Of a DNA stretch of 64,000 nt, positions 19,447-63,901 are shown in pieces. Positions within the stretch are counted from its first letter, which is position 1; the number at the start of each line of letters is the position of its first letter. Below the pieces are notes generated by a model. It did no database searches. It saw only the letters and a list, made by a program, of their open reading frames with translations, and was not told where the DNA came from. Made by a program: the position numbers and the translations under genes. This DNA is from a virus (lineage: Duplodnaviria; Heunggongvirae; Uroviricota; Caudoviricetes). Where the stretch lies: positions 1 to 64,000 of the IMG/VR virus record IMGVR_UViG_3300028379_000400, one strand, 5' to 3'.

Positions 19447-19521
19447 GGGATGGCCTCGCCGCTAAGAGAGACCGTGGTGTATAAGAAAATTACACAGTTG
19501 GCAATATAGATCGAAAAAAAA

Positions 19522-19541
19522 TGTGCAACGGTTGTGTGCAC
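19522..19541. promoter_or_regulatory. imperfect TGTGCA-type operator in PL-like control region
   Basis: TGTGCAACGGTTGTGTGCAC; related to the 19-bp palindromes at 48082, 51990, 58079. Confidence 0.35.
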
Positions 19542-20419: not shown

Positions 20420-21067
20420 CTATGCCCGCCGGTGCCGCGAGAACAGCCCGACCTTGCCGATGATGATATCGATGACGTCGATCTGCGTCGACTCGTCACC
20501 CTTCATCTCGATGTCGGTTTGCCACGCCGGATCCGTGCTATGCGGCCGGAGATTCCATTTCTTGCCATTCTTGACAAGAAGCTTGGCGGTATACTCCGCC
20601 ATGCCATGTTCGAGACGCCTGACGATAACCAGGTCCCCGTCCTCTGGGATTAGCCCAGTATCGCTGACGCTCACGCCCTGCAGGTATTCGCCCTCCATGG
20701 CGAACCTGTTAATCGATGTGCCCTCTACCTCCCACAGTCGCTGCGCCGCAGCCGGATAATCCGACCGCGGGCTGTACGGCATGTCAAAGGGAACGAAGGC
20801 CACTGTCCCCTCCTTCCACACGCCGGCCGCGACTCTACCAACCACCATAAGACCGCCCGCCCCCTCACCGACGCCGCTCTCAAGCCACATGAGCGGCTTT
20901 TTGGTTAGCTCCGAGATTTCCTCGAGCGTCTTCCGGTGTGGACGGACTAAGTCGCCTTCCCATTTAGCGACGGCGCTACGAGTTTTTCCGAGCGCGAGCG
21001 CGAACTCCTCCTGCGAGGAATAACCCGCGTCGCGTCGTGCCTTTATCATGCGCTGTCCGAATGTCAT
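20420..21067 (-). CDS. CI-like phage repressor (XRE HTH + S24 LexA-like peptidase domain)
   Basis: N-terminal HTH (SQEEFALALGKTRSAVAKWE), C-terminal S24-like fold with K residue region AKLLVKNGKKW. Confidence 0.7.
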   Translation of the reverse strand: MTFGQRMIKARRDAGYSSQEEFALALGKTRSAVAKWEGDLVRPHRKTLEEISELTKKPLMWLESGVGEGAGGLMVVGRVAAGVWKEGTVAFVPFDMPYSPRSDYPAAAQRLWEVEGTSINRFAMEGEYLQGVSVSDTGLIPEDGDLVIVRRLEHGMAEYTAKLLVKNGKKWNLRPHSTDPAWQTDIEMKGDESTQIDVIDIIIGKVGLFSRHRRA

Positions 21068-21114
21068 TTGTCCACTATAACGCATCGCGTTTTCACATGC
21101 ACCGACACTTTTGC

Positions 21115-21143
21115 TTGACGTCGATGTACCTTTAGATTATACA
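21115..21143 (+). promoter_or_regulatory. PR-like sigma70 promoter (TTGACG-17-TATACA)
   Basis: in divergent intergenic region between repressor and rightward operon. Confidence 0.4.
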
Positions 21144-46381: not shown

Positions 46382-47644
46382 CTAGACCCGCATGGGCATA
46401 AGGACGGCCAGCCAGCCTTCGCGGCCTTCGCCGGTCACGACAGTCGGCGAACCAGCGTCATTGAACAGCATGGTCACTTCGTCGGAACGGGCCTCGGTAA
46501 CCAGGTCGGTGAGATAGCGGGCATTGAAGCCGATCTCGAACGACTCCGGCATTTGCTCGCCCGGGACGATTGCGAGGGGTACGGCCGACGATCCCATGTC
46601 GGGGTTGTTGCAGATCAGCGTGAGCTTGCCGCCCTCGAACGAAAGTTTGACCGCCTTGCCGCCGCGTTCCGATGCCACCAGCCCGGCCGCCTTGATCGCG
46701 GCGAGAGCGTCGGCGGCCTTGAACGTGACCGCCTTGTCATTGTTTTTCGGCGTGACACGCTCGTAATCGGGGAATGTTCCATCGATCATTTTGGACGTGA
46801 CTGTCACGCCATCCCAATGCAGCCGCATGAAGCGCTCGTGGACCTCGATTTCGACGGTCTCCGGCCGCGCCTTGCCCTTCATGAGCTTCACCAGAAGGGC
46901 GACCGTCTTTTTGGGGATGATGATGCCCGGCATGCCGATTGCGCCGTCTGGCGCCGTGATTTCGCTTCTCGCCATGCGATGGCCGTCAGTGGCCGTGCAG
47001 CGAAGCTCCGGCCGGTTGCGACCCGACGGCGTGACGACGTGCATATAGACGCCATTGAGATAGTACCGGGTCTCCTCATTTGAGACCGCGAACTCGACGG
47101 CGTCGAGCGAGTCAAAAAGCTCGATGCCAGAGAGGCTGAAGCGGTGCGTGAACTCGCCGGGCTTCAGTGCCGGGAACCCTTCTGACGGCAGAGCCGCCAT
47201 CTGGTAAGTGGCCGTGGCGAAATCGACATCGACCGCGCCGTCGAACGTGATGATGGTTTCCGTCGCGTCGGGGACGTTCTCGCCCTTCTCGATATCGAAT
47301 TTCCAACGCGTGACGCGTTCCACGGCCTTGGACGGTGGCATGGTGAAGGCGACGTATTCGGCCTTGGGCGCGCCCTTCAGCAATTGCTTCAGCATCAGCG
47401 CTGGCACGGTCACGTCGAACCGCTCATCGGCCGGCGCGGGCACGGCAACGTCGATCACGATATCGAGGTCGGTGCTCGTGACGAAAAGCATGTTGCCGTC
47501 GCCGCGAAGGCGGACGTTGGCAAGAATGGGGTAGGTGTTGCGACGCTCAACGATCTCCTCCGCGATCTCGACGGCGCGAGTCAGGGCGACGCGGTCGGCG
47601 ACGGCGGAAGCAAGGGCAGCGGAAGCAAGGGCAATGGCGGTCAT
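46382..47644 (-). CDS. dnaN: second DNA polymerase III beta sliding-clamp homologue
   Basis: RRNTYPILANVRL, three-domain clamp pattern, C-terminal LMPMR; leader motif upstream. Confidence 0.8.
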   Translation of the reverse strand: MTAIALASAALASAVADRVALTRAVEIAEEIVERRNTYPILANVRLRGDGNMLFVTSTDLDIVIDVAVPAPADERFDVTVPALMLKQLLKGAPKAEYVAFTMPPSKAVERVTRWKFDIEKGENVPDATETIITFDGAVDVDFATATYQMAALPSEGFPALKPGEFTHRFSLSGIELFDSLDAVEFAVSNEETRYYLNGVYMHVVTPSGRNRPELRCTATDGHRMARSEITAPDGAIGMPGIIIPKKTVALLVKLMKGKARPETVEIEVHERFMRLHWDGVTVTSKMIDGTFPDYERVTPKNNDKAVTFKAADALAAIKAAGLVASERGGKAVKLSFEGGKLTLICNNPDMGSSAVPLAIVPGEQMPESFEIGFNARYLTDLVTEARSDEVTMLFNDAGSPTVVTGEGREGWLAVLMPMRV

Positions 47645-48081: not shown

Positions 48082-48100
48082 TGTGTAATTTAATTGCACA
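48082..48100. promoter_or_regulatory. 19-bp palindromic operator TGTGTAATTTAATTGCACA
   Basis: near-perfect inverted repeat at head of leftward operon. Confidence 0.5.
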
Positions 48101-48114
48101 ATCGGCGATTCGTG

Positions 48115-48501
48115 TCAAGCGCGCAGCGCCGTTTCGATCAGGTCGAAATTCCCGTCGTCACGCAGATCGGCGTCCGCACGACCAGCGCGCCGCTGCGCCT
48201 TGTCGGCAAGCTCTTCGCGGATAGATCGCAGATCGGTCACGCTATCAGCGCCCGCCAGCGCCGCGTCGATGGCAACCTTGTTGACCGCGAACAGCAGCGC
48301 CAGCGAGCGCGGCAAGCCCATGTCGGTCTCGCCTTGATCGAAGCGCGGCCACGTTCTTTGATCCTGCCAGACCAGCGCGCCGGGCGGCGTGAATTGATAG
48401 GCGAAGCGACGGCCGCCGAAGACGGAGTCGGTGACGATCACGCGCCACGCGCGGCCGTTGATCGTCATGGGCTCGCTGGCCCAATGAACCGGGCCGGTCA
48501 C
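48115..48501 (-). CDS. hypothetical protein (128 aa)
   Basis: ORF. Confidence 0.4.
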   Translation of the reverse strand: MTGPVHWASEPMTINGRAWRVIVTDSVFGGRRFAYQFTPPGALVWQDQRTWPRFDQGETDMGLPRSLALLFAVNKVAIDAALAGADSVTDLRSIREELADKAQRRAGRADADLRDDGNFDLIETALRA

Positions 48502-48874
48502 GACGGTGCACCTTCGGGCCAGATGCGCTCATAGAGCGCGCCAAGCATCCCCCGCGCGCTCGCCTCGGGGAGCGTGGCCAATACCGCCGACGGCTTCAGT
48601 TCGCGAAGATTGACCGGCTTACGCAGCTCGCCCATGAAGGCGACCGGGTCGGCGATATCGTGGCACGCGTTGAGACAAGCGACGATGCGTTCCGCCCATT
48701 GAGCCGGCGATGGCTCTGAGGCGTCGGGGTCGGTCAAATTCACCATGTAGCCGGTGAGGGTGACGACGGCCAATTCCTGCCCGCCCGGTAGTCGGATGGC
48801 AGGCGTTCCGTCGGGCACTCGGGATTGGTCGCGAACGATATCAGCGACGGCTTGATAGACCTTGGGGTAGTTCA
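48498..48874 (-). CDS. hypothetical protein (125 aa)
   Basis: start MNYPKV placed after GGAGTCCCCG leader (track start is an upstream TTG). Confidence 0.4.
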
Positions 48875-48917
48875 TCGGGGACTCCATGAATGCCCACAAT
48901 CGGGCGAGGGCAGGCGG

Positions 48918-50483
48918 TTACCAGCGGCGCGTCTTGCCGATGGTGAGGATGACGGTGTTGACGTTGGTGCCGACTTCGGAGAAGGAACCGGCCGGAAGGT
49001 CGCGGAAGTCGCCGCCGCGTTCCTCAACGAGTTTGCGGAAGGCGATTGCCTTGCGCGTCTCGCGGAACTCGGTGCCAGCCGACATGATCGCTACAAGAAT
49101 GCCGTCGGGCTTAAGGAATTTGAGGGCGTGCATGACGTGGTCAATGTCGCGTTCGCGGTCAAATGGCGGGTTCATCACAACCCGGTCGTAATGGCCGGTT
49201 GTCGCAGGATCGAGGCGCAAGAAATCCATATTGTAGACGCGCCGGTAGATGCCTTCGATTTCGAGGGCGCCAGCAAGGTGTGGCTGAATCTCGACGCAGT
49301 CGACCGCGTTGTCCCAGCGGTAGTGTCGCAGATATTCCTCAAGGTGCTCGGCGCGCCTTGAATAGTTCGCCGTTACGGCTTCTGCATCGCGGAGGCAGTG
49401 GCGTGCTAGGTTGCCGGTCCCAGCGCTCGGCTCGAGGATCGTCAATTGAGGCTCATCGATTTTCTGCATAAGCGGTAGATGGTGGAATAGCTCAGAGACC
49501 GCCCGCTCTGGCGTTGGGAAGAATCCGTAGCGCTTCGCCGGGGTGGTTTTGATATCGGCAAATGGGTCCGCCTCTTGCTCCCGCCCGTCGCCGATGACCT
49601 CGCCGTACCATTCCGCCAAAAGCTTATTGACCTTCTCCACCAGGTCGCGGCGCTGAAACCACAAATGGGCATTGCCATTCATGAATCCCTTGATCCGAAA
49701 GTATTCGGTTTCGACCTCGCTTTGCCGCGGGCCGCGGGTATGACGACGGTCGTTCTCAAGCTCACCAAGAGCGGACCGGAACGATGCTTCTGGCTTGCCG
49801 TCGAGGACAGCGAAGACGCGCTCGATATCCACCAGTTGATCGCGGATTGAGCCGTATTTCAAACCGCCGCCGAATGGTCCGACATCGAAGGCGTAGGTTA
49901 GGATGATGCGCGAACCAACCTTAAAGCCGTCGTGCGACCGGAAGCGCCGATCCAGCTTGGAAAAGACGTTGGAGATGCCGCGCCGGAAGATATTGCCGCT
50001 ATCGGCCACGAAGGCCTCAATGGTGGCCTGCACGTTCTCGACGGTGAATGGTGGAAGGCCCTTGGCGATTTCGTCGCCGTTAATCAATTCGCCGTCGCGG
50101 CTGACGCGGTCAGGCACATAGGCCATTTGTTGACGCAACTTATCCTTGGCTTCCTTGTCCATCAGGCGCTCCAGGTCGGTGCGTTCAATGGTGTAGGCCC
50201 ATGCGTTGACGTCCAGCAGCTTGCGAGCGGTCCGCAAGTAGCGGTCGCGATCCGGCAGTGTGACCGCCGAATGAAACGCGCTGATTTCCTCGACATGCTC
50301 GTAGTTGTAGTTGTTGAGCCCTTCGGCGCTGCCCGGCCGCACGTTGCGGGCCATGTCGTCGGCCTCGCCGATGGCGGCGGCGGCCTCTGCGATACGGTCG
50401 TAGGCAGTGCTGTACAGGACAAGCGCCTGGTCGCGGGCGGCGGCGATTTGTTCGATGGTGGCGCGGGGGACGATGGCGTTCAT
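48918..50483 (-). CDS. DUF4942-type orphan DNA methyltransferase (N6-adenine class)
   Basis: FFPTPERAVSELF, ILEPSAGTGNLA (motif I), VMNPPFDRE (motif IV NPPF); leader motif upstream. Confidence 0.7.
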   Translation of the reverse strand: MNAIVPRATIEQIAAARDQALVLYSTAYDRIAEAAAAIGEADDMARNVRPGSAEGLNNYNYEHVEEISAFHSAVTLPDRDRYLRTARKLLDVNAWAYTIERTDLERLMDKEAKDKLRQQMAYVPDRVSRDGELINGDEIAKGLPPFTVENVQATIEAFVADSGNIFRRGISNVFSKLDRRFRSHDGFKVGSRIILTYAFDVGPFGGGLKYGSIRDQLVDIERVFAVLDGKPEASFRSALGELENDRRHTRGPRQSEVETEYFRIKGFMNGNAHLWFQRRDLVEKVNKLLAEWYGEVIGDGREQEADPFADIKTTPAKRYGFFPTPERAVSELFHHLPLMQKIDEPQLTILEPSAGTGNLARHCLRDAEAVTANYSRRAEHLEEYLRHYRWDNAVDCVEIQPHLAGALEIEGIYRRVYNMDFLRLDPATTGHYDRVVMNPPFDRERDIDHVMHALKFLKPDGILVAIMSAGTEFRETRKAIAFRKLVEERGGDFRDLPAGSFSEVGTNVNTVILTIGKTRRW

Positions 50484-50528
50484 AGCAGGGACTCCGAGAG
50501 CGCCCATGATCGGGCAAAGGGCAAGCGG

Positions 50529-50783
50529 TTAGGCTATGGCTTCAAGGTAGGTTTCAGGGTGGCAATCCGGCCCGTCTTGTGCGGACCAATCCCAAATCTG
50601 GATGGCGTTCTGCCATTCGTCCAGTTCTGGAAAGTGCTTGTCGAGCGTCACCCAATAGGAACCCTCTTCATCGATTTCGCGAAGCGTTCCCGTCAGGCCG
50701 ATATCGAAAAAGCCGGTCGGGAAATTGTCCACGGCTTTGACGAGTTGGACGCGGGTCTTGGGTTGCAGCATTGGCCTAACCAT
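50529..50783 (-). CDS. hypothetical protein
   Basis: coupled ORF, start uncertain. Confidence 0.3.
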   Translation of the reverse strand: MVRPMLQPKTRVQLVKAVDNFPTGFFDIGLTGTLREIDEEGSYWVTLDKHFPELDEWQNAIQIWDWSAQDGPDCHPETYLEAIA

Positions 50784-51117
50784 CCGCGTTCGCGATGGTG
50801 GCGCGCACCGCTGCCAGACGGGCAGCGGCGGCGGCATAGCTGATGGCCATGCGCGGCCCGTCCTTTCGCAGGCGGTCCACGTAGCCCATCAGGTCGCCTT
50901 CAATTGCCTTGAGCGCCGACAGCGCCGCCGAAGACCCTGCAACTTGAACGCCGTCGTCGGTGCGATAGACGGAGACTGAAACCGTATCATCGTCGTTCTG
51001 CCGGACGGATATTAATCCGCCCTTGCCGTTCGGCGCCGTGAACTCGGCGATGCGCTCGTGCTGCTTGTCGGCGTAGGTATCGGCGACGCAATGAGGGTTG
51101 ATCGACGGACGGCGCAT
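50776..51117 (-). CDS. hypothetical protein (113 aa)
   Basis: TGATG coupling at 51117. Confidence 0.35.
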   Translation of the reverse strand: MRRPSINPHCVADTYADKQHERIAEFTAPNGKGGLISVRQNDDDTVSVSVYRTDDGVQVAGSSAALSALKAIEGDLMGYVDRLRKDGPRMAISYAAAAARLAAVRATIANADG

Positions 51118-51320
51118 CACGACTCCAGCCATTCGTGCTTGCGGGCGATAGCCTGGCGGCGCGCCATACGGCGGGCGCGGCCTTCGGGGCGCTTGCTGAA
51201 CGGCTCGCCGTGGCGCGGCCCATGCTGGCGCAGGTTCACTTTGACGCCAAGCCCGGCAAGGTGGTGCTCAAGGCTGACGGCCATTGTGCGCAGCAGTTTG
51301 CCTTCAATCGGGTGGTTCAT
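51117..51320 (-). CDS. small basic protein (67 aa)
   Basis: leader motif upstream. Confidence 0.35.
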   Translation of the reverse strand: MNHPIEGKLLRTMAVSLEHHLAGLGVKVNLRQHGPRHGEPFSKRPEGRARRMARRQAIARKHEWLES

Positions 51321-51400
51321 CTTGGGACTCCTCTAGTGCTCACAATCGAGCGGGGCGGCTTGTTGCCGTATCGGCGGCGCATTGCGCCGCCTAGGCTGCA

Positions 51401-51688
51401 TCAAGCGACGTTGACGGCCAGATATCTGGAATAGCCAGACGTTGCCGCCTTGAAGCCAGCGGGCGAGCGCTGGCCCGGCGCAAGATCAACAACACATGCC
51501 AGCGGCTTGCCGGTTGCCTTGGCCTCGGCTGCATAGGCGTCACGGGCGGCGATGGCCTCGGCAGTGTTGCGGACTTCCATGTCGCGCGGGGCGAACTCGT
51601 CAGGCTTGCCGGTAAGATCGAAGACGACAGAAAAGCGCCCGCCGCCGCTGGCCTTGGCAGGGTATGAATGAAGGCGGATTTTGACCAT
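51401..51688 (-). CDS. hypothetical protein (95 aa)
   Basis: start MVKIRLHSYP after leader motif. Confidence 0.4.
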   Translation of the reverse strand: MVKIRLHSYPAKASGGGRFSVVFDLTGKPDEFAPRDMEVRNTAEAIAARDAYAAEAKATGKPLACVVDLAPGQRSPAGFKAATSGYSRYLAVNVA

Positions 51689-51731
51689 TTGGGACTCCTC
51701 ATTGCTCACAATCGAGCGGTTGCAGGCGGGA

Positions 51732-51914
51732 TCAGTAGCCGCCCGCCATAGAGCGCAGCAGCGGACCGGCCTTCGCGCGGTATTGCGCCTTGGCTTCGAG
51801 CGCAGCGGTCTCGCGAATCTTGCGGGACAGTTCTGCGCGTTCGAACTTGTCGGTGGTGCCGCCTAGCTGTGTGCGAAGGGCTTTCAGGACGGCGGCGGTT
51901 GGCAGCTTTGCCAT
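51732..51914 (-). CDS. small hypothetical protein (60 aa)
   Basis: start MAKLPTAAV after leader motif. Confidence 0.35.
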   Translation of the reverse strand: MAKLPTAAVLKALRTQLGGTTDKFERAELSRKIRETAALEAKAQYRAKAGPLLRSMAGGY

Positions 51915-51989
51915 ATCAGGGACTCCGTTAGCGCTCACTGTCGAGCATGGGGAGAGTAGAAACCTGTTCGCGTCGGCGGTCAAGAAAAA

Positions 51990-52008
51990 TGTGCAATAAA
52001 CTTGCACA
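51990..52008. promoter_or_regulatory. 19-bp palindromic operator TGTGCAATAAACTTGCACA
   Basis: perfect 7-bp arms; abuts stop of upstream operon. Confidence 0.5.
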
Positions 52009-52374
52009 CTATTGCTGTTTCTCGAATAGGTGTGCGGCGCCTGAATTGACGATCAACGCGGCGCCGCGCTCATCAGCAATGGCGTCGTTTATCCAGATAT
52101 CGCGATAGTCGGTCGCCGGCTCATAAACTCCGTCTATCGTCCAATAGCCGAGGTTAAGAATATCCTCGGTGCCGGTCTGCGCCGGAAGGCCATGGGACGC
52201 GAGGAACGAATTGAACTCGGCAATGTCGATCCGGGCGATTTTTAGGTAGCCCTGATTCGGGTCGGGATCGGCTTCATCGAAATCGATGCCGGGGGCATAG
52301 TTCAGCACTTCGCCAGTGGCCAGATCGCAGGTCATCTCTCCCCAATTGCCTGTCACGAGAATTGTATCGGCCAT
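52009..52374 (-). CDS. hypothetical protein (121 aa)
   Basis: variant leader GCGCGATCATGCGC...GGAGTTAC. Confidence 0.4.
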   Translation of the reverse strand: MADTILVTGNWGEMTCDLATGEVLNYAPGIDFDEADPDPNQGYLKIARIDIAEFNSFLASHGLPAQTGTEDILNLGYWTIDGVYEPATDYRDIWINDAIADERGAALIVNSGAAHLFEKQQ

Positions 52375-52465
52375 CGAAGTAACTCCGGTTGTGGCGCATG
52401 ATCGCGCGGGCGGTGACTGTCACCAGTGGAGCGGGCGCGCGGCGCGCTCGCTCGGCTGATATCAG

Positions 52466-53302
52466 CTAAAGGCTGGCGATGAACGCCAAGGCCTTGACGG
52501 CTAGCGCGTCACCTTTTGCCGCTTGTGCCTCGACATGGATTCTGGCGTCGTCATCGCTGGCAAAAATCGGCTCGCCGTCGCCTTCGGGGCAAAACTCGTG
52601 CATGTCGTCAACGCGCTCGATACCGCCAGCCATGAACCAGCCCTGCACGCCTGCCGCATGCATGTCATCAGCCGTCCAACCACTTTCGCGGGCGGCTTTG
52701 CGCTCGGCCTGGCATGCATGCTCTGCCGTGCTGGCGTAGCGGTAACCGTCGGATGCGGTGGCGTCGGTTTTGCGCCATTCGCTTTGCTCGGTTTCCCAAT
52801 ACCAGCCCGCCGCCTTGGCCGCCGCGACATAGATCGGATTTTCGGGCGCGGGATCTTGCTCGTCGTCGCCTTCGTCGTCTTCGGCTACCTCTTCCGCATT
52901 CATCGCCAGCGCGCTCCGGAACATGGCCTTGGGATCGCCGCCTTGCCGCCGGATCAAATGGGCCATGTTGCAAAGTAGGTCGCCGATAGCGTCTTCGTCA
53001 TCGGTCCGGCAAACCCCTTGAAAGGCGCTTACGGCGGCTTGCGCAAATTCGGCCCGGTCGGCATTGGTGGGCGTCATCATGCCCAGCGAATGCAGCGCGT
53101 GCGGCACGGTTTCCATGTCGGGGACAACGGCAGCATCGGTCACCATAAAATCGGTGTCATTGGACAGGGCATAAAGGCCGTCGGCAACAACCTGCCACGC
53201 CGCCCGGCTAGCGATTGGGCAGGCGTTGTCAAGGTTGCGCTCGACAAACGCAGCCACATCAAACGCGGCGCTGCTATCGATCAAGGCGAAGGTCTTTTTC
53301 AT
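52466..53302 (-). CDS. acidic hypothetical protein (278 aa)
   Basis: leader motif; DDEGDDEQDPAPENP stretch. Confidence 0.45.
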   Translation of the reverse strand: MKKTFALIDSSAAFDVAAFVERNLDNACPIASRAAWQVVADGLYALSNDTDFMVTDAAVVPDMETVPHALHSLGMMTPTNADRAEFAQAAVSAFQGVCRTDDEDAIGDLLCNMAHLIRRQGGDPKAMFRSALAMNAEEVAEDDEGDDEQDPAPENPIYVAAAKAAGWYWETEQSEWRKTDATASDGYRYASTAEHACQAERKAARESGWTADDMHAAGVQGWFMAGGIERVDDMHEFCPEGDGEPIFASDDDARIHVEAQAAKGDALAVKALAFIASL

Positions 53303-53433
53303 GGTCGGACTCCATCATGCGCACCATTGCGCGGGGGATTGGCCTTTGCGGCCAGCTAGGCCGGGCAGGGACGCCCGGCTTGGCTTGCGGCAAGGGTAGG
53401 GACGGGCGCGCGGTCGCGCCCGCCACGGGGCAG

Positions 53434-54852
53434 CTAGAGCCGCCCGATATAGACCGGGTCACCAAAGGGAACGGCGGCGGCGAGGCTGGCGAATTTTCGG
53501 CTATCGCCATGCGTTGCCCAAAGGACCGGGCAGGCAGGCTCCTCCCCAAAGTCACTAACCTCTAGGTCGGTTAGGTAGACAACGGCGCTGGCGTCCGGGG
53601 CGTTGGCCTCGATCCACTCAAAGGTATTGCGGAAGGCGGTGCCGCCGCCGCCCGCTAGCGTCAATTCTACGGTATCGCCAACCGTGAACTCGGCGACGCT
53701 GCAAACCCGCGTGTCTGCCATTAGGACGGTAAGCCGGGCAAACTTGCCGGACTCCATCGCGCCGACAATTTCGGCGGCGGCGTTGTTGACCATGTCGGCG
53801 GTTATCGAACCGGACGTGTCGACGGCAAAGACGACATGCGACAAGCCGTCGACAACAGCGCCGGGCAAATACACGCCAGCGTGCACAAAGCGGCGATTGG
53901 GGCGGGCAAACGAATAGTCGAATGACACGCGGGAATCGATCCAGTTCGCCAGCAAGTCGCGCCAATCGGCAACGGGCGTTGCAAGGTCCGTCACAAGCTC
54001 TTGCAGATAGCCCGGAACGCTTCCGGCTTGCGCCTTGGCGACGTTGACGGCTTGGCGGGTCCAAACCTGCCATTGGTCGGCGCTCGCCTCGCTTTCCACC
54101 TGCCCGCCTTCCGGTGCGATAACCCCGCCCATGCCGTGCGCGTCGCGGCTATCGTTCCCCGGCGCTGGCGCGCCTTCCGGCTGGCCTTCCGCGCCGCCGC
54201 CTTGTGACTGCCCGTCCGGCTGGCCAGCGCCTTCAGCGCCCGCGCTATCGCCGCCGCCTTCCGCGTCACCCTCGCCCGCTTCGCTATCTGCGCCAGCGTC
54301 TCCCGGTTCGGACGCGTCGCCCTCGCCAGCGTCGGCGGTCTCGCCGTCGCCCGCCTCGCTTTCGCCTTGTCCGGATTCGCCCTGGCTGGCGTCCGCCTCG
54401 CCGTCGCCCTCTTCGGGTTGCTCTTGCGGTTTGGTCTCGGCGGCAGTCAACAGGGCGTAAACCTCTTCCGCGCCCATGCCACGAAATGCCGGGTCCAAGA
54501 GCATACCGCGCGGCATGGTGAACCCGGCCGCGATCAGGTCGGGATTGATGCAATAATCAGCCGCCCGGTTGAAGCGCTCAAGGTCACGGTTGCCAATGCG
54601 GGCATGGTGACGATAGGCGCAATGCGAGACCTCGTGCGCGACTAGGAAAATGCATTCCGCCTCGCTTAGGCTTTCGATAAAGGCGGGCGCGTAGAAAAGG
54701 GACGCGCCGTCGGTCGCCATTGTGGCCGTCTTGTCCGGCCGTGCCGCCACGGCAAGGTGTAGGGCGAGGCAACCATAAAACGGTTGCGACGTGACTAGCC
54801 GGGTCCGCGCCAAGGTCACGCGGTCGGCGGCGTTGAGGCCTTGCCAGTTCAC
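53434..54852 (-). CDS. VWA-domain protein with N-terminal HExxH metallopeptidase-like domain (DUF2201-type)
   Basis: HEVSHCAYRHH; MIDAS VVFAVDTSGSI; acidic Gly/Glu/Asp linker; GTG start overlapping MoxR stop. Confidence 0.7.
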   Translation of the reverse strand: MNWQGLNAADRVTLARTRLVTSQPFYGCLALHLAVAARPDKTATMATDGASLFYAPAFIESLSEAECIFLVAHEVSHCAYRHHARIGNRDLERFNRAADYCINPDLIAAGFTMPRGMLLDPAFRGMGAEEVYALLTAAETKPQEQPEEGDGEADASQGESGQGESEAGDGETADAGEGDASEPGDAGADSEAGEGDAEGGGDSAGAEGAGQPDGQSQGGGAEGQPEGAPAPGNDSRDAHGMGGVIAPEGGQVESEASADQWQVWTRQAVNVAKAQAGSVPGYLQELVTDLATPVADWRDLLANWIDSRVSFDYSFARPNRRFVHAGVYLPGAVVDGLSHVVFAVDTSGSITADMVNNAAAEIVGAMESGKFARLTVLMADTRVCSVAEFTVGDTVELTLAGGGGTAFRNTFEWIEANAPDASAVVYLTDLEVSDFGEEPACPVLWATHGDSRKFASLAAAVPFGDPVYIGRL

Positions 54853-55853
54853 AGCGTCACCGCCTGATTACGGTGCGCCCAGTCCACATAAGCGCCGGTC
54901 TCGCAAAGCGCCTTGTCCCGCTTCACCGCGTCAACGGCGGTTACAATCTCGAACTCTTTCGGCAGGCGGCGGGCATAGGCCAGCACGTTGTCAAACGTCG
55001 TCACGCTGGCTTTGCGGGCGAGGGCGGTTGATACCGCGTAAAGCGCCGACGGGTTTGACGGTACGGGCGCGCCGTGCGGGTCCGCTATGATTGCCTCTAG
55101 CCGGGGAAGCTCTTCCGCGATTTCCGCAAAGGCTTCAAATTCGGCGGCGACGGTATCGCCGACTAGGCCAGCTATCAGGGCATGCCGGACGGCAAGCGGC
55201 TGGCCAACAAACTTGGCGGCGCGTTCCCATGCCCGTGGCGACGGGAAGGCTAGTTCATCGGCTGGCGCTGGCGTGGCGCGGTCCATCGTTTCGACGTGTA
55301 GCAGCGCCGGGCGGAATTTGAGAAACCCGGCTATCAGCGGATGAACGCCAGCCGTTGCCGCCCATGCCTGCCATGCCTCGGGATCAACCGCGACGTTCAG
55401 GTGTAGGAATCGATTGGCCAGCGCGCCCGAAATCTTGTTTGTGCCGGTCCGGTCGGTTTTGCCGTTGCCCGCCGCAATGACGCGCACGCTATCGGGGAGG
55501 GCATGCTCGCCAATGCGCCGATCTAGGACGATTTGCAGCGCCGCCGCCATGACGGCCGGACTCGCCCGGTCCATTTCGTCAAAAAACAGGATTGTTTCGC
55601 GCGACGGGTCGGACGGCCAAATTGCCGGTTTCAGCCAAACCGTTTCCCCGTTCACGGCGGCGGGCAAGCCGCGCAAGTCGACGGGGTCAAACATGCTCAA
55701 CCGGATATCGGCCAGCGTCGCGCCACGCCGCTTGGCAAGGGCCTTGATAACGTCCGATTTGCCTACGCCCGGCGCGCCCCAAACAAAGGGCGGGACGTTG
55801 GCGTCTAGGGCGGCGTTGACAGCCTCAACAGCGGCGGAAAGCTTCAGTTTCAT
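54849..55853 (-). CDS. MoxR-like AAA+ ATPase
   Basis: Walker A VWGAPGVGKS, Walker B ILFFDEMDRA; leader motif upstream. Confidence 0.75.
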   Translation of the reverse strand: MKLKLSAAVEAVNAALDANVPPFVWGAPGVGKSDVIKALAKRRGATLADIRLSMFDPVDLRGLPAAVNGETVWLKPAIWPSDPSRETILFFDEMDRASPAVMAAALQIVLDRRIGEHALPDSVRVIAAGNGKTDRTGTNKISGALANRFLHLNVAVDPEAWQAWAATAGVHPLIAGFLKFRPALLHVETMDRATPAPADELAFPSPRAWERAAKFVGQPLAVRHALIAGLVGDTVAAEFEAFAEIAEELPRLEAIIADPHGAPVPSNPSALYAVSTALARKASVTTFDNVLAYARRLPKEFEIVTAVDAVKRDKALCETGAYVDWAHRNQAVTL

Positions 55854-55919
55854 AGTGGGACTCCACATTGCGCACTAGCGCGCGTCACGCCGCCGGGCGA
55901 ACCGGCGGCGACACTCGTG

Positions 55920-56828
55920 CTAGGCCATATAGGCGGAAACGTCGTCAACGATTGCCGCCGCCGCCTTGGCGATTTCAGCGCGGGCGCTGGCATCATCCCG
56001 CAAGGCTTCCGCGTCATACCGGCAAAGCGCCGTCATGCGGTCCGCCACGCTGGCCAGCAACGGGTCATTGGTAATGTTGAGGGACGGCAACAGCGCGGCG
56101 AGCTCACGGACATTCTCAACAAGCGAGTCCCGGAAGATTGCCGCCAGCTTGTCGCCCTTGTCATTTTCGCGGGTCTCGGCGAGCTTGGTAGCCATGTGGC
56201 CCACCTTGTCGCAAACCCGCTTGAAAACGTCGCCCATGGCGTCGCCAATCGCCTTGTCAGTGCGCGCCTTGATATCGGCGCGGATTGCTTCCGCCGCCGC
56301 CTCGCCGACATCAACGCGGAAGTCGTCGGCGTCCGGCATAGGCATAATCGAGTAACCGAAAGAGAACCGGGCGGCGATTTCCGACGGGTCGGGATAATCC
56401 TCCGCCTTGAACATGCCATTAAGCCGCGCCTTGGCAGCATCAACATATGCGCTGTAGCCAGCCGAGAAACTGGCCACGGCGGCGTCAAACTTCGCCTTGT
56501 GCTTTTGCATCGCTGCGGCATAGGCCAGGTATCCCTTGGCGCTAAGAATGCGCGACCCGTTGTCAAACCATGGCGCGGTCCGGGCGTAATGGTCGTCACG
56601 CGCTTCGCCCGCCACCTTGTTGATTTCGGCCAGCGCGTCGCGGCTCAAAAGCGCCTTGTTGTACCGGCCAGCGTCGGCGCTCGCCCCATGGTCGCGGTTG
56701 ACTTCATCGGTCACCTGCCGGTCAAGCTTCCGGCCGGACCATGCCGTGATGTTGACGGCGGCAATCATCGCCTTTTCGGAAATGGCAGAACGCGCGGTGG
56801 GCGTGGCGTTGGCAATGTGCATGTTCAT
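55920..56828 (-). CDS. hypothetical protein (about 302 aa)
   Basis: start MNMHIANATP after leader GGAGTCCGACTATG. Confidence 0.45.
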   Translation of the reverse strand: MNMHIANATPTARSAISEKAMIAAVNITAWSGRKLDRQVTDEVNRDHGASADAGRYNKALLSRDALAEINKVAGEARDDHYARTAPWFDNGSRILSAKGYLAYAAAMQKHKAKFDAAVASFSAGYSAYVDAAKARLNGMFKAEDYPDPSEIAARFSFGYSIMPMPDADDFRVDVGEAAAEAIRADIKARTDKAIGDAMGDVFKRVCDKVGHMATKLAETRENDKGDKLAAIFRDSLVENVRELAALLPSLNITNDPLLASVADRMTALCRYDAEALRDDASARAEIAKAAAAIVDDVSAYMA

Positions 56829-56914
56829 AGTCGGACTCCGGTTTGATCGCCCATGATCGGGCAGGTTGGCTAGTCGCCAGTGTTGCCCGCGACGCGCGCG
56901 GGCAAGGCTTCCGA

Positions 56915-57220
56915 CTAGAACGCGACAGGCACGACGGCGGGCAGGGAGGGCGCGCAATAGGCGTCAACGGCTGGCAACGGCTGGCCGGTCTCGCTTGTGG
57001 CCACGGTCGGGAACGGCGCTTCCCAAATCGCATGCATTGCCGCGCGGCAAGCGTCGGCGGGCATAGGGTCGGACATGCGCAAGGCATGCCCGCCCTTGGC
57101 GTTGAGTATCAGGGTAAGGCGCAACAGCGTCGGCGCGGCGGAAACGCCCGCCAGCGCGCCGCCAAGTGTCACGGCGAGGCCGATAGCGGCAACGGCAAGG
57201 GTTGAAGTTGTCCGGGTCAT
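56915..57220 (-). CDS. small exported/membrane protein
   Basis: MTRTTSTLAVAAIGLAVTLGGALAGVSA signal-like N-terminus. Confidence 0.35.
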   Translation of the reverse strand: MTRTTSTLAVAAIGLAVTLGGALAGVSAAPTLLRLTLILNAKGGHALRMSDPMPADACRAAMHAIWEAPFPTVATSETGQPLPAVDAYCAPSLPAVVPVAF

Positions 57221-57224
57221 TTGC

Positions 57225-57373
57225 TGACTCCGAAAATGGCGCACGTGGCCAACGTGACGACGGCCAGTCCGCCAAAGAACGTGGAAGCGACAAGCCAGTC
57301 GGACATGGCCAGATAGGCGTTGATTGCGTTTTCGAGCGCCACCAAGGGGCGCAGAATCTTGTTCATGGCGCGC
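57225..57373 (-). CDS. 49-aa membrane peptide
   Basis: MNKILRPLVALENAINAYLAMSDWLVASTFFGGLAVVTLATCAIFGVSK; read manually, not in track. Confidence 0.25.
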
Positions 57374-57374
57374 C

Positions 57375-57572
57375 TCAGCAATTTTCAAGTTGTTCGGCGA
57401 AGGCGAGCGCTTCGGCCGCTTGCTTGGCGAATTGCGCGGACATGCCCGCGTCGCACAGTTCGGCGGACCATTCGTTCCACTTGGCGGCGCTGCTACGGCA
57501 AATGTTGGCGAGCGTCCAACGGGTTTCCTCCGGGATTAGCTCTAGGGCAGCGGCGGGCAGTTCTTTCTGCAT
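57375..57572 (-). CDS. small hypothetical protein (65 aa)
   Basis: start MQKELPAAAL after leader motif. Confidence 0.35.
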   Translation of the reverse strand: MQKELPAAALELIPEETRWTLANICRSSAAKWNEWSAELCDAGMSAQFAKQAAEALAFAEQLENC

Positions 57573-57658
57573 TTGGGACTCCTCAATGCGCACAATCGCG
57601 CGGGGTTAGGCGTCTAGAGCCTAGTAGGACGCGCCACGCGGGCGCGCCCGGCTAGAGG

Positions 57659-57829
57659 CTAGGCGAAGTAACGGGCTATCGCCGCCAGCGCGTCCGCCTC
57701 ACAATCGAACAAGCCCCATGACTTGAGCCGTTGCGTTCCATGGCTGACATGCCAGCGACGCGCGAGGCGATCAAACCCGGTCACGAGACTGCCGGGCGCA
57801 TAGAGCTTGAGGTTGAGCAGGGTTTCCAT
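57659..57829 (-). CDS. small hypothetical protein (57 aa)
   Basis: METLLNL start with GAGGG RBS. Confidence 0.25.
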   Translation of the reverse strand: METLLNLKLYAPGSLVTGFDRLARRWHVSHGTQRLKSWGLFDCEADALAAIARYFA

Positions 57830-57839
57830 TGACGCGCCC

Positions 57840-58013
57840 TCAATAGCCAAGCCACGCCAGCACGGCGCTGGCGCGGTACGTGGCACGGTCGCCGCACTCG
57901 GCAAGAAACAGGGCGATTGATTCGGCGTCGTCAACGCCATGGCGTGCAAGCTCTTGCAGGGCGCGGGCTTTGGTGATCGTCACGCCACTTGCGGACTCGG
58001 AATAGGTGCACAT
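57840..58013 (-). CDS. small hypothetical protein (57 aa)
   Basis: MCTYSESASGV... preceded by leader GGAGTCCCGTGAATG; read manually. Confidence 0.25.
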   Translation of the reverse strand: MCTYSESASGVTITKARALQELARHGVDDAESIALFLAECGDRATYRASAVLAWLGY

Positions 58014-58078
58014 TCACGGGACTCCAATCGGTCGCGCACAATCGCGCATTGCGCACATGCTCATAGTTCGCCGCATTT

Positions 58079-58097
58079 GGCAAGCGCTTGTGCAAAG
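58079..58097. promoter_or_regulatory. 19-bp palindromic operator TGTGCAAAGATATTGCACA
   Basis: perfect 7-bp arms at head of leftward operon. Confidence 0.5.
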
Positions 58098-58099
58098 AT

Positions 58100-58620
58100 A
58101 TTGCACATTCCACGGACGCCAAAGGGAACGCGCGCGCATGTGAGGGCAGCACACTGGCCAGCCCTGCCACGTGGCTAGGTCGGACGCCATGCCTACGCCA
58201 CGCCAGCGCTGGCCAGCGTCATGCCGCACCGATAGCTGGCAACACGTCGCGCCTCGCTTCGCATGTCATGCCAGCGTGTCCAATTGATACCTGGCTACGG
58301 TTCACGCTCGCCGCTTGCCTCGCCGAGTCGCGCCGCTTGCCGCCTCGCCCATGACTGGCCAGCGCTGGCCGCGCCTCGCCCCTCCGGCCTCGCCGATCAT
58401 GCCGCGCGCCCGTCACTGACAGGATGTCACGATTTGACCCGGCGAGGCATGGCCACGCGTTCGGAGTGCCGTGCCCGCCTCGCCGTCGTCAACCCAAGCC
58501 GCGCGCAGCGTCCGAGACCCCTAGGGGGGTCTAAATCTCTAGGCGCCGGCGGAAGGCCCTGACCGCGGGGGCCCCAAGCCCGAAAAAAATTTGGTATGCA
58601 CAGTTTTTGATCCAGCCAAA
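58100..58620. repeat. GC-rich non-coding region with short direct repeats (GCCTCGCC, TCATGCC) and GCCAGCGCTGGC palindromes
   Basis: no credible ORF; multiple repeat copies seen by eye. Confidence 0.4.
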
Positions 58621-58659
58621 AAAATCCCAGTCGACCGCCGGCGCGTGGCGATCGCTGGG
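58617..58659 (-). terminator. Rho-independent terminator of XRE gene
   Basis: minus-sense CCCAGCGATCGCC...GGCGGTCGACTGGG hairpin followed by TTTTTTT. Confidence 0.4.
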
Positions 58660-58698
58660 CTGCAGCTCAGCGGTGTTTTGGCTTGCTCGAGGCCGCTC

Positions 58699-58890
58699 TT
58701 ACGGCGTCAAGGCGCCGGCGAGATCCTTCATCCGGAGAGCCAGGCGCAAATAGGCGGCAAGCGGCCCGGGAATGCGATCGTCCACGATCCAGCGGCTCAT
58801 TGTGGTGCGGTGCGTGGCCGTCCGTCGAGACAATTCGTTCTGGGACCAGCCGAGATCTTGAAGCGCCTGTTTGAGCTCTCGCGAGTTCAT
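58699..58890 (-). CDS. XRE-family HTH regulator (63 aa)
   Basis: LKQALQDLGWSQNELSRRTATHRTTMSRW; GGGAAGG RBS; promoter region carries TGTGCAAT repeats. Confidence 0.6.
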   Translation of the reverse strand: MNSRELKQALQDLGWSQNELSRRTATHRTTMSRWIVDDRIPGPLAAYLRLALRMKDLAGALTP

Positions 58891-59004
58891 GTCGACCTTC
58901 CCGTGAATGTGTCTGGTCCTCCTAGCGGTCAGTATCCCGATATGCGGGAAATAGACCCTTCCGACGGCCGGGTGAAGACCGATGTGCAATTTCGGCGACG
59001 AAAA

Positions 59005-59046
59005 TGTGCAATAAAAGTTGACACTGCTGAAATCCTGTCGTATGAA
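59005..59046 (+). promoter_or_regulatory. sigma70-like promoter TTGACA-17-TATGAA overlapping degenerate TGTGCAAT operator
   Basis: -35 at 59018-59023, -10 at 59041-59046; TGTGCAAT at 58983 and 59005. Confidence 0.5.
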
Positions 59047-59149
59047 CGGGGCCTGCAGTGACGGCCTGGCAGGCGCACCGAGCACAAACGGGAAAGCCTG
59101 CTGAAGTTCTCGAGCTCTCTCACTCAAAAGCTCGATGGTGGAGGGCTAA

Positions 59150-59600
59150 GTCGCCCCCTTCGAAGATGGGCGTAATTCGGTTCGAGTAGATAGCGGATAG
59201 CACCCGGGGGCAGTACCCGGCGCTTCCACCATGGTCGCATCTGTCGCCGGCGTCGAGCTGGCTTCGCCGCCCTTCACTGGGGCGGTCATTGCGAGGGCAG
59301 TGAAGCCTCGCCGGGATGCGCCTTTGATGGGAGCGAAACAGGATCGACTACCGCGGGAAGCAAGAAACGCGCTTCGGCATGGCACCGCCGAGATCGGGCC
59401 GACGAGTAACTGCGAACGATAATGTCCGCACTGGTGAGATGGCCCTCGCGGCCTAATCACCTGGGGCCCGCCGGCGCCTCGCAACAGAAGCCGGCAGCGC
59501 GGGGATTGCCCAAGTCGAGTTCCGCGTAAAGGCACAGTTGGGTTGCGACCGCGGTAAGCGCGGCGAGCTGGTGGAAGGCCGGCAATGATTTTCTGGTTGT
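59150..59600 (+). ncRNA. ssrA: circularly permuted (two-piece) tmRNA gene, ends approximate
   Basis: acceptor 3' strand CGCTTCC-A-CCA at 59221-59231; downstream 5' strand GGGAGCG (59329-59335) pairs 7/7 incl. G3-U; followed by AAACAGGATCGACTACCGCGGG; tag ORF GCG AAC GAT AAT...TAA at 59412-59456 = ANDNVRTGEMALAA. Confidence 0.55.
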
Positions 59601-59940
59601 CGAGCGGGCTGGCCTCCGTCTCTGCGAACCTGGGGCTAACGCGTCCAAGGGCGTGACGGGCGGAGAGAGTGCCGCAACAGAATTCGCCCTGACGGGCACA
59701 ACGGTTTGGGTGCGAGCTCGAGCGGTGAAGTGAAGGGGTCCTCGCGTGGGGCACGGTCCATGGATGCGTGCGGCGACGAGTAGCCGGTCTTCCGCGCTCC
59801 GAGGTCGGAGCAAATGACAGCTCCACCCAATTCAATCCGCCGCGGCGCTTACGAGCGTCCGGCAAACCAATAGGCGAGGGCAGGAGGCCACTCCTCCCGC
59901 GACACCCGGCAGGTGCTTCTGCCGACCGTCGCGGTTGTCT

Positions 59941-59966
59941 CGCCTGCTGGGGAGGCGGTTTTTGGG
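59941..59966 (+). terminator. possible Rho-independent terminator
   Basis: CGCCT-GCTGGGG-AGGCG followed by GTTTTTGGG. Confidence 0.3.
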
Positions 59967-60043
59967 AGCCGCGGCTTGGTGCTCGTCCGCCAACGCCGCC
60001 GGCGGGGACCGCCTCCCTCATCCACCAATCGAACGGAGGCAAC

Positions 60044-60601
60044 TTGGAAGACGCTATCGAATTCGAGCCTTTCCAGAAGATCGCTCGCCTGAAACGCGCG
60101 TGCATCATTACCGAGAAGATCGACGGCACCAATGCCTGCGTCTTCATTGGCGACGATGGCGAGTTCCGCGTTGGCAGTCGGACTCGCTGGATCACGCCTG
60201 AAGACGACAACCACGGGTTTGCTCGCTGGGCTTTCGCTCACCGCGACGAGCTGATGGAGCTTGGCCCTGGCCGTCACTTTGGCGAATGGTGGGGCCTCGG
60301 CATCCAGCGCAGCTATGGTCTGAAGGAAAAGCGCTTCTCCTTGTTCAACGTCGGGCGCTGGAATGCCGAGACTCCGCCGCCGGCGTGCTGCGGCACTGTC
60401 CCGGTTCTTTTCGAAGGCCCGTTCGATACCGGTGCCGTCGACGGCGTGCTCGCGTTCCTTCGTCGGAACGGCTCCAGCGCGGCGCCTGGCTTCTCCAAGC
60501 CCGAAGGCATCATCGTCTATCTGCCGGCCGCTCGGGACTATTTCAAAGTCACCCTCGAGGGCGACGAGGCGCCGAAGAGCCTTTCGGCCAAGGCAGCATA
60601 A
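60044..60601 (+). CDS. Rnl2-like RNA ligase / nucleotidyltransferase
   Basis: motif I EKIDGTN, motif III FGEWWG, motif IV EGIIVY, motif V FKVT; TTG start with ACGGAGG RBS. Confidence 0.55.
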   Translation: MEDAIEFEPFQKIARLKRACIITEKIDGTNACVFIGDDGEFRVGSRTRWITPEDDNHGFARWAFAHRDELMELGPGRHFGEWWGLGIQRSYGLKEKRFSLFNVGRWNAETPPPACCGTVPVLFEGPFDTGAVDGVLAFLRRNGSSAAPGFSKPEGIIVYLPAARDYFKVTLEGDEAPKSLSAKAA

Positions 60602-61042
60602 CGAGTTTCATCGGCCGGCCAGAAACGTCTCGAGTCCTGGCGTCTCGGCCGTGAAGTGAGGCGGCATGCATTCTAGGGTCCGCACCTGCAGGGACGGATC
60701 GGCCTTCAGGTAACTGCTGGCTGGTGTGCCGCCTCCATAGTTTCCCGCCGCTCCGCCACATGGCTAGCGGCGGGGAGTCGACGGCGGCGTTGAAGGCAGG
60801 CCTGCAGGCCAAGAGAAACGCAGCGAACATAGATGGAGCGATCTGGCCGCAAGCCTTCGGACCGCAGAGGTCAATGGGGCGGTTCATCGTTCACGACAGA
60901 AACCTCCCGGGCCGGCAGGAAACGCGGGGCAGGAAGGTGAGGCGGATCCGCTGCCGCGGGCGAGCCGAGCCCTTGAACATAATCCACCAGATCTTGCCCG
61001 GGTCGCGCCGGGCCCGTCGAAAACTAGCAAAGGGAAAACAAG

Positions 61043-61498
61043 GTGAACACGAATCTCGTCGCCGCAATTGATGATCTTGTCGAGAAAAAGACGTTCTCGC
61101 TAGACGCACTAAAAGCGATCCAGGATCTGCGCGCTAAGGCCGAGAAGTCCTTAGAAACCGAAGCCCAGAACGCAGCCAAGATAACATCTCAGGCGGACAA
61201 TCTTTCGAAGCTCAGTGCTGAAATTAACGCATGGCAGTCGAAGGACGCCGCGTTGAAGGCCCGCGAGGATGCGGTCGCTAAACGCGAAGCGGCGATCACC
61301 AGGCTCGAGCTCGAGACGGCGGTCGCCAACGCCGGCATGAATGTTATGCGCGAAACGGTTTCGATGTTCCTCCGCAACAGGGTCGTGCGCGAGGACATCG
61401 TATCCAGCACTCCGGTAGGGGTTCCGGGCGGAGGGGGCGGTCCTGGCTACATCCAGAACGCTCCAAAGACCGAGAACATCACGCGCGAAGAGCAGTAG
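61043..61498 (+). CDS. coiled-coil hypothetical protein (151 aa)
   Basis: GTG start; heptad-rich; Gly-rich tail. Confidence 0.4.
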   Translation: MNTNLVAAIDDLVEKKTFSLDALKAIQDLRAKAEKSLETEAQNAAKITSQADNLSKLSAEINAWQSKDAALKAREDAVAKREAAITRLELETAVANAGMNVMRETVSMFLRNRVVREDIVSSTPVGVPGGGGGPGYIQNAPKTENITREEQ

Positions 61499-61500
61499 CC

Positions 61501-61770
61501 ATGAAGCTCCGCGACGTCAAACCTGGCATGACGGTCTACCCCGACGCCGATTTCACCTGCGTCGATGCCGATACGCCGTCGGTCGTCAAGCGCGAGTCCT
61601 TCATCAAGCGGCTGTGGCAATGGCTGCGCACCGGCGACATGCCGCATGGGTTGTACATCGACTGCGATTGCGGTGAGCACGGCCTCGACGGCCAGGAGCG
61701 CGAGGACGGCACGCTGTCCGGCATCGCAGCGCTGCCGTGGGTCGGCATCAATGGGCGCCAGAATCCATGA
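61501..61770 (+). CDS. hypothetical protein (89 aa)
   Basis: ORF. Confidence 0.4.
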   Translation: MKLRDVKPGMTVYPDADFTCVDADTPSVVKRESFIKRLWQWLRTGDMPHGLYIDCDCGEHGLDGQEREDGTLSGIAALPWVGINGRQNP

Positions 61771-62066
61771 ATTTGCTCACAGAGGCCGTGGCCCGCACCA
61801 AATGGTGCCCGTTGGGTGCCGAGCGATCAGCCGGCAGACTAAATCCGGCTGCGAACCGAGCTCGCGACGGGGGCGAGCGAGTCTTGCTAACGAATTGCGT
61901 CGCCAGCGATTGCATGATGTGGCGGGCTGTCCCAGATGATTGCCCGGATTGCAAGGGCACGGGCAGGCACGTCAGTCAGGGATATCCGCTAGTCTGCAGC
62001 ACATGCCAAGGCAGCGGCAGGGCGGCATCCTACACGGGCTACTGCGGCCTGGCTGGTCGGCCATGA
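61767..62066 (+). CDS. small protein with two DnaJ-type CxxCxGxG zinc-finger motifs
   Basis: CPDCKGTG and CSTCQGSG; ATGA coupling. Confidence 0.4.
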   Translation: MNLLTEAVARTKWCPLGAERSAGRLNPAANRARDGGERVLLTNCVASDCMMWRAVPDDCPDCKGTGRHVSQGYPLVCSTCQGSGRAASYTGYCGLAGRP

Positions 62067-62275: not shown

Positions 62276-62285
62276 GAGGTTTGAC

Positions 62286-63899: not shown

Positions 63900-63901
63900 C
63901 C

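Follow-up and report, generated by a model that had tools for sequence, protein, structure and literature searches.

The subject of this study is a family of 19-bp palindromes of the type TGTGCAA-N5-TTGCACA in a stretch of 64,000 nucleotides of phage DNA (Caudoviricetes; IMG/VR record IMGVR_UViG_3300028379_000400, positions 1 to 64,000), which is referred to here as the window. The palindromes are probably operators of the phage's own CI-type repressor, the gene of which lies at 20420-21085, and these operators would be dispersed over the genome. A first-pass annotation of the same DNA had read them as a second regulatory circuit distinct from CI, a reading that is not supported, since the same motif family occurs at both operator positions flanking the CI/S24 gene. 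Most likely, the arrangement is a switch of an ordinary kind, that is, a CI regulon with dispersed operators and not a separate second circuit. We infer from sequence only the binding by CI, the sense of the control (repression or activation) and the exact promoters.

A family of 19-bp palindromes in the window

The pattern TGTGCAA-N5-TTGCACA with up to two mismatches was found three times in the window as opposed to 0.12 matches expected, and none of 100 shuffled sequences reached three matches. A scan for TGT-N13-ACA, in which the inner four positions had to be palindromic with at most one mismatch, returned exactly four sites (0.56 expected), namely those starting at 19478, 48082, 51990 and 58089. 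The heptamer TGTGCAA occurs eight times in the window, always within either the distal palindromes, which are the last three of these sites, or the degenerate copies at 19522, 58983 and 59005. The intergenic share of the window amounts to about 18% in a rough gene model, and all palindrome sites are intergenic. Between sites 51990 and 58089, 14 of the 14 half-site bases are the same, and the 5-bp spacers and the flanks are unrelated. Such a combination is the signature of recognition by a protein, and neither a recent duplication nor a conserved RNA structure fits it. The prediction that the palindromes form a family of protein operators, which had already been made in the first-pass annotation, is sound, and all three distal palindromes named there exist, although the third is located at 58089 and not at 58079-58097, ten bases off.

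The consensus of the window sites is TGTRYAA-N5-TTRYACA. The predicted operators next to the CI gene, termed OL1, OL2 and OR (Table 1), share the 7-5-7 layout and the outer TGT/ACA with the distal sites, and the two half-site variants are bridged by OL1 (TGTATAA/TGTGTAA) and by site 48082 (TGTGTAA/TGTGCAA). Position 7 of the half-sites is A nearly throughout, in CI-proximal and distal sites alike, the exceptions being the degenerate halves of OR, of OL2 and of the two sites in the region of the transfer-messenger RNA (tmRNA) gene. A weak match at 36380-36398 (TGGGCAATCACGCTGTTCA), in the gap upstream of gene 36604-37764, has two mismatches to the relaxed consensus and is probably due to chance, because 2.3 such matches are expected per window.

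Table 1. Predicted operators and the CI, XRE and tmRNA features of the window.
Feature	Position	Strand	Sequence or domains	Remark
OL1-type operator (predicted)	19478..19496		TGTATAA-GAAAA-TTACACA, TGTATAAGAAAATTACACA	
OL2-type degenerate operator (predicted)	19522..19540		TGTGCAA-CGGTT-GTGTGCA	44 bp from OL1
CI-type repressor gene	20420..21085	minus	HTH_3 and Peptidase_S24 (Pfam)	
OR-type operator (predicted)	21125..21143		TGTATAA-TCTAA-AGGTACA (minus strand)	half-degenerate
Distal operator 1 (predicted)	48082..48100		TGTGTAA-TTTAA-TTGCACA, TGTGTAATTTAATTGCACA	one mismatch
Distal operator 2 (predicted)	51990..52008		TGTGCAA-TAAAC-TTGCACA, TGTGCAATAAACTTGCACA	perfect
Distal operator 3 (predicted)	58089..58107		TGTGCAA-AGATA-TTGCACA, TGTGCAAAGATATTGCACA	perfect
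XRE/HTH_3 protein, 63 aa	58699..58890	minus		candidate repressor of the first-pass annotation
TGTGCAA half-site, isolated	58983..58989	plus	TGTGCAAT	22 bp upstream of the hybrid site
Hybrid site	59005..59023		TGTGCAA-TAAAA-GTTGACA, TGTGCAATAAAAGTTGACA	left half perfect, outer ACA kept
Putative tmRNA promoter	59018..59046	plus	TTGACA-N17-TATGAA	read from sequence only
Two-piece (permuted) alpha-type tmRNA gene	59120..59498	plus	tag ANDNVRTGEMALAA	phage genes on both sides

The CI-type repressor and its predicted flanking operators

The CI gene probably starts at 21067 or 21049. In a search of the PDB, its N-terminal domain matched the DNA-binding domains of the P22 C2 and 434 repressors, and the A87-G88 cleavage site, S124 and K168 are invariant or nearly so in an alignment of 15 homologues. 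As in a switch of the CI/LexA type, the window encodes a repressor with a helix-turn-helix (HTH) and an S24 domain that has the Ala-Gly site and the Ser/Lys dyad, related inverted-repeat operators lie on both sides of cI over early promoters, and the CI-proximal and distal palindromes form one operator family. OL1 is preceded by a TTGCCA -35 and followed, 32 bp further on, by the ATG at 19446, which opens a long leftward operon extending from 19446 to 1 and adjoining the CI/S24 gene. OL2 contains a perfect half-site TGTGCAA/TTGCACA, the same as in the distal sites, with a T-run behind it on the minus strand, as at 51990 and 59005. The order in the OL region is 19522-19540, TTTTTTTT, TTGCCA and 19478-19496. 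OR covers the spacer and the -10 of a rightward promoter (TTGACG-N17-TATACA) and is found 76 bp upstream of the conserved CI start. At OR, OL1 and 48082, the palindrome lies over the spacer and -10 region of a recognisable promoter-like hexamer pair. For the PL-like region, the first-pass annotation had correctly reported the degenerate copy at 19522, but had overlooked the full palindrome at 19478-19496 and, next to the CI gene, the half-degenerate one at 21125-21143.

CI homologues with 47-64% identity were compared together with their contexts from assemblies, IMG/VR and metagenomes (four sources, about 25 loci); the loci include a Mesorhizobium contig as well as phage and metagenome contigs. 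Nearly all of them carry TGTAYAG-N5-CTRTACA (19 bp, 7-5-7) at 160-2000 bp downstream of cI, for example TGTATAGTTAGTCTGTACA in L188, L190 and L197, TGTATAGTTTGGCTGTACA in L192 and TGTATAGTTGGCCTGTACA in L185, and in most of them a half-degenerate copy precedes the cI start by 62-81 bp (one locus has it at -130). In the OR region, eight loci (the window and seven relatives) can be aligned base for base over the operator and a CTTGAC -35, so that the element covers the spacer and the -10 of the divergent early promoter. Downstream of cI, the order in the relatives is fixed and consists of a degenerate site, a T-run, a -35-like CTTGCG and a good palindrome, the distal half of which forms the -10. 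Since the window shows the same order of sites, 19478-19496 and 19522-19540 are the OL operators of CI by orthology, the former being orthologous to the TGTATAGTTNNNCTGTACA site of the relatives downstream of cI. This conserved operator and the layout of OL2, T-run, -35 and OL1 are shared by the homologues in L185, L188-L192, L197, L198, L220, L221 and L224.

The half-sites of the relatives have G at position 7 in all cases. The OR site of L185 contains TGTGCAG, which means that G at position 4 is tolerated in the CI operator family. The recognition helix reads KTRSAVAKWE in the window and K[TS]R[SG]AVAQWE in the relatives, and the window CI is alone in the family in having K in place of Q (AKWE instead of AQWE). 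In the P22 C2-operator structure, the Gln that we take to be equivalent to this Q contacts bases. We infer that A at position 7 in the window, where all relatives have G, and the K-for-Q change in CI may represent a co-variation of operator and repressor. A position weight matrix (PWM) was built from the sites of the relatives only and scored over about 64,000 positions of the window. It ranked 19478 first, 21125 fifth, 48082, 51990 and 58089 sixth to eighth and 19522 ninth; no single score is significant, and the joint ranking alone is telling.

Distal sites, the tmRNA region and the genomic setting

Site 48082 is situated 15 bp past the stop of gene 48115-48501 and ahead of the block with a DnaN-like gene. 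A consensus TTGACA (48113-48118, minus strand) is present 12 nt upstream, so that the site would lie over the spacer and -10 region of what may be the leftward promoter of this block. The stop codon of gene 52009-52374 directly adjoins site 51990, which precedes the ATG at 51915 by 74 bp. A hairpin with a 9-bp stem (-10.3 kcal/mol, three of the nine pairs GC) is formed by this site on the minus strand and has UUUUUCUU behind it, and 51988-52010, which comprises this hairpin and TTTTTCTT directly past the stop of 52009-52374, was flagged as terminator-like; the site may well double as a weak terminator besides its predicted role as an operator. Site 58089 is preceded by a non-coding stretch of 590 bp and is found 75 bp upstream of the ATG at 58013, which belongs to the first gene of the leftward block from 58.0 to 52.0 kb. 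The only recognisable -35-like hexamers at 51990 and 58089 (TTGACC and TTGCCA) lie 5-6 bp downstream of the palindrome. A scan of 47.6-59.6 kb for consensus promoters found none, so that the promoter assignments rest on a reading of hexamers by eye.

The first-pass annotation had placed a palindrome at the head of each leftward operon. The sites do precede leftward blocks, but the gaps 42062-42303, 44397-44596 and 57382-57658 of the leftward array at 39-59 kb contain no palindrome, and neither does the leader GGAGTCCC-N4-ATG at 50481. This leader (50481-50495) provides the same ribosome-binding context as at 51912 and 58011 and falls within the 5' end of the longest open reading frame (ORF) of the DUF4942 methyltransferase, which suggests that the true start of this gene is the ATG at 50483 and not that at 50507.

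The tmRNA gene is followed rightward on the same strand by an RNA-ligase gene (60044-60601, phrog_548) and by 62286-63899 (phrog_1735, E = 1e-115), and these phage gene families place the tmRNA inside the phage genome. No tmRNA was detected with nhmmer in any of 235 loci collected for comparison. The two TGTGCAAT half-sites reported at 58983 and 59005 are real and lie in the divergent control region of XRE and tmRNA. The right half of the hybrid site at 59005 is at the same time the -35 TTGACA (59018-59023) of the rightward tmRNA promoter, and an operator-like sequence does overlap this -35, as had been stated; the description of the promoter as a strong sigma70-like one was not confirmed, because with a -10, TATGAA, that ends in A it fails the sigma-70 criteria of the promoter scan. 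In a comparison by eye, the hybrid region is about 27/31 identical to the 51990 region, with 1-nt indels, and a 1-nt deletion in an operator half-site (TTGCACA to TTGACA) seems to have given rise to the -35 of the tmRNA promoter. The operator-like element at 59005 may be directed at the tmRNA promoter, the leftward XRE promoter or both.

Upstream of the XRE gene, at 93-133 bp from its ATG, two half-sites and one site with three mismatches are present; the claim of operator sites in the XRE promoter region is therefore borne out for half-sites but not for a full palindrome. In the terminator-like hairpin next to the XRE gene (58651-58674), the T-run is on the plus strand and not on the XRE strand, and the terminator of its own that the first-pass annotation had assigned to the gene was not confirmed. 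The non-coding sequence of about 590 bp between distal operator 3 and the XRE gene (58108-58698) contains six copies of GCCTCGCC in 58317-58484 (9 copies of this motif are expected in the whole window and 22 were found) as well as two palindromes of the TGGCCAGCGCTGGCCA type (58202-58216 and 58355-58369). This iteron-like cluster might serve as an origin, for partition or for attachment. The XRE gene and the iteron-like region are bracketed by a perfect inverted repeat of 13 nt, CACATTCACGGGA at 58009-58021 and TCCCGTGAATGTG at 58899-58911, with 877 nt between its arms, and one arm lies over the start codon of a 57-aa gene.

The window represents the early or DNA-metabolism part of a large phage and is devoid of structural genes. 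It encodes a RecT-like protein, an exonuclease, a thymidylate synthase, a Dda-like helicase, several methyltransferases and a MoxR-type ATPase with a DUF2201 metallopeptidase/VWA protein. Two separate DnaN-type sliding clamps (13312-14424 and 46382-47644) are present, one per leftward early block. A Logan contig is identical to window positions 48699-64000, and database records place the CI and XRE proteins on a contig of 195,839 bp. A look-up of the 594-aa ORF 62115-63899 did not find it on record. Megablast of the 39-59 kb region against phage and plasmid collections gave no match. Among 60 loci with DUF4942 methyltransferases from genomes and IMG/VR, none had the TGTGCAA palindrome or homologues of XRE or LuxR, and relatives chosen by DUF4942 are too mosaic to inform on the operator. 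An exact scan of IMG/VR for TGTGCAA-N5-TTGCACA returned at least 118 stretches, nearly all with a single site and with no meaningful tblastx similarity to the window phage; among the matches listed, the single-site ones are chance singletons.

Model of the switch, competing explanations and known systems

In a lysogen, CI dimers would occupy OR over the -10 of the rightward promoter and OL1/OL2 in front of the DNA-metabolism operon from 19.4 to 0 kb. They would also occupy the three better-matched distal operators, 27-37 kb away, ahead of successive leftward blocks that encode the MoxR-type ATPase and VWA-domain protein, the DUF4942 methyltransferase and the DnaN-like clamp, and probably also the half-degenerate site that overlaps the -35 of the phage's tmRNA promoter. 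Self-cleavage of CI stimulated by RecA would then release all these promoters jointly. Repression is the simplest model. It is unlikely that CI directly gates the phage tmRNA and that, in addition or instead, the perfect sites at 52.0 and 58.1 kb are activating ones; if so, phage trans-translation would be tied to prophage induction in the first case, and in the second CI would keep the defence-like MoxR-VWA and DUF4942 methyltransferase operons on in the lysogen, not off.

Several observations weigh against dispersed CI operators. The PWM scores of the sites (8.3-12.0) are below the average shuffle maximum of 12.7, and no distal operator copies were seen in the relatives within +/-10 kb of cI, which leaves the dispersed layout without comparative support. 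Neither the DUF4942 relatives nor the IMG/VR pattern scan yielded a phage with the same TGTGCAA operator for a check of co-variation. The distal TGTGCAA sites are better palindromes than the CI-proximal ones of the TGTATAA type and differ from them at positions 4-5, so a second, related specificity of the distal sites is possible. In addition, the centres of sites 51990 and 58089 would be near -50, which is not the classical position for occlusion; the promoters may be misassigned there, or CI may act otherwise, by upstream contacts, looping or even activation.

The 63-aa XRE protein, proposed in the first-pass annotation as the cognate repressor, carries an HTH_3-type motif, and its gene has distal operator 3 on one side and the two TGTGCAAT half-sites on the other; as the repressor, as a Cro-like competitor or independently, it would control both the 39-59 kb block and the promoter of the tmRNA. 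The operators of lambdoid phages are shared by Cro and CI, and XRE could likewise bind in addition to CI. However, a homologue search of 5.8 billion proteins returned XRE itself alone, which makes a test for co-occurrence with the motif impossible, the protein has no similarity to CI, and the PDB search gave no meaningful match. Moreover, there is no full palindrome upstream of the gene and hence no operator of this kind in the regulator's own promoter, the motif family recurs at the CI-proximal OL and OR 37 kb away, and relatives that lack an XRE homologue have equivalent sites. Together, these points make XRE a doubtful candidate. A LuxR/GerE-type protein of 67 aa encoded by the phage (43587-43790), also put forward in the first-pass annotation, or a host regulator of the Fur/Mur type with a 19-bp palindromic box is a quite improbable binder. 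The LuxR/TraR family binds TGTGCAG-type boxes, and the half-site in the window resembles the TraR tra-box half-site TGTGCAG, but the tra box has a spacer of 2 bp against 5 bp here. The LuxR gene adjoins none of the sites, and no such palindrome occurs within 10 kb of its closest homologues (70-75% identity), which are host chromosomal genes. In L237 and L238, the homologue is a conserved host chromosomal gene beside an AbrB-family membrane-protein gene, and the phage gene looks like a captured host regulator. As to the host, a 19-bp palindromic Mur box exists in Rhizobiales (PMC1698941). A host regulator would leave unexplained why related phages have CI operators at the orthologous positions.

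The palindromes could finally act mainly at the RNA level, in which case their hairpins would serve to terminate or process long leftward transcripts from one block to the next. Distal sites 1 and 2 are located directly past stop codons, and the 51990 hairpin with UUUUUCUU was flagged as terminator-like, but this is the one site that qualifies. Sites 48082 and 58089 lack the U-run of an intrinsic terminator, the mismatch of 48082 produces a C-A clash on the transcribed minus strand, and 58089 follows the 590-bp non-coding stretch and not a gene end. The stems are weak and AT-rich, and the half-site sequence is kept in all copies without compensatory changes. An explanation by RNA structure is therefore very improbable for the family, and a role as hairpin or terminator was rejected for all sites other than 51990.

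Dispersed CI operators can be placed among known phage switches as follows. By the tests that were possible, the window system is predicted to belong to the lambdoid class of CI/OL/OR switches. Like lambda CI, P22 C2 and 434 cI, its repressor combines an HTH with a LexA-like, self-cleaving S24 domain, and palindromic operators flank the repressor gene over divergent early promoters, with the OL sites arranged in tandem. Unlike the lambdoid operators, which have 17, 18 or 14 bp, the window operator has 19 bp in a 7-5-7 arrangement (TGT...ACA), and at a distance of 27-37 kb from the repressor gene there are at least three further perfect or near-perfect predicted operators. Beside the OR of the window, no homologue of Cro was recognised. 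In phage P1, the C1 repressor binds 22 operators spread across the genome, which are asymmetric 17-mers, ATTGCTCTAATAAATTT (PMC8546580). As in P1, one primary repressor of a large temperate phage would directly control many scattered operons, including those for replication and methylation, and a dispersed layout is found in the window with sites at 19.5, 21.1, 48.1, 52.0, 58.1 and 59.0 kb. The number of about seven sites in 64 kb, on a contig of up to 196 kb, differs from the 22 of P1, and the operators are 19-bp palindromes and the repressor is an HTH_3-S24 protein, for which no evidence of a relation to C1 was found, although the two proteins were not compared. The stoperators of mycobacteriophage L5, bound by gp71, are asymmetric 13-mers in one orientation in short gaps of long early operons. 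Sites 48082 and 51990 likewise lie in short gaps between co-directional genes, but the window sites are palindromic and lie beside promoter-like hexamers. Because the operators of P1 and the stoperators are asymmetric, the window system is in neither of these families.

Phage-borne two-piece tmRNA genes are known but uncommon: tmRNA genes of all types occur in about 2.3% of phage genomes, and 53 of them are two-piece (PMC9004378). As in phage Melnitz (PMC9004378), the phage genome contains a complete permuted ssrA behind an early-type promoter, with the difference that the window phage is of the temperate type, from a high-GC alphaproteobacterium, and that its promoter has a sequence like a repressor operator and not a riboswitch.

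The regulation proposed here is not of a new kind, and the main value of the analysis lies in the correction of the second-circuit reading and in a list of sites that can be tested. If the assignment to CI is true, the classical CI switch is extended in a large, uncultivated temperate phage whose host is a high-GC alphaproteobacterium, with extra operators that would control accessory modules for replication, methylation and the ATPase, and possibly the phage's own tmRNA. For phages of alphaproteobacteria, TGTAYAG-N5-CTRTACA would be the operator consensus of a widespread CI family and could aid the annotation of prophage immunity regions.

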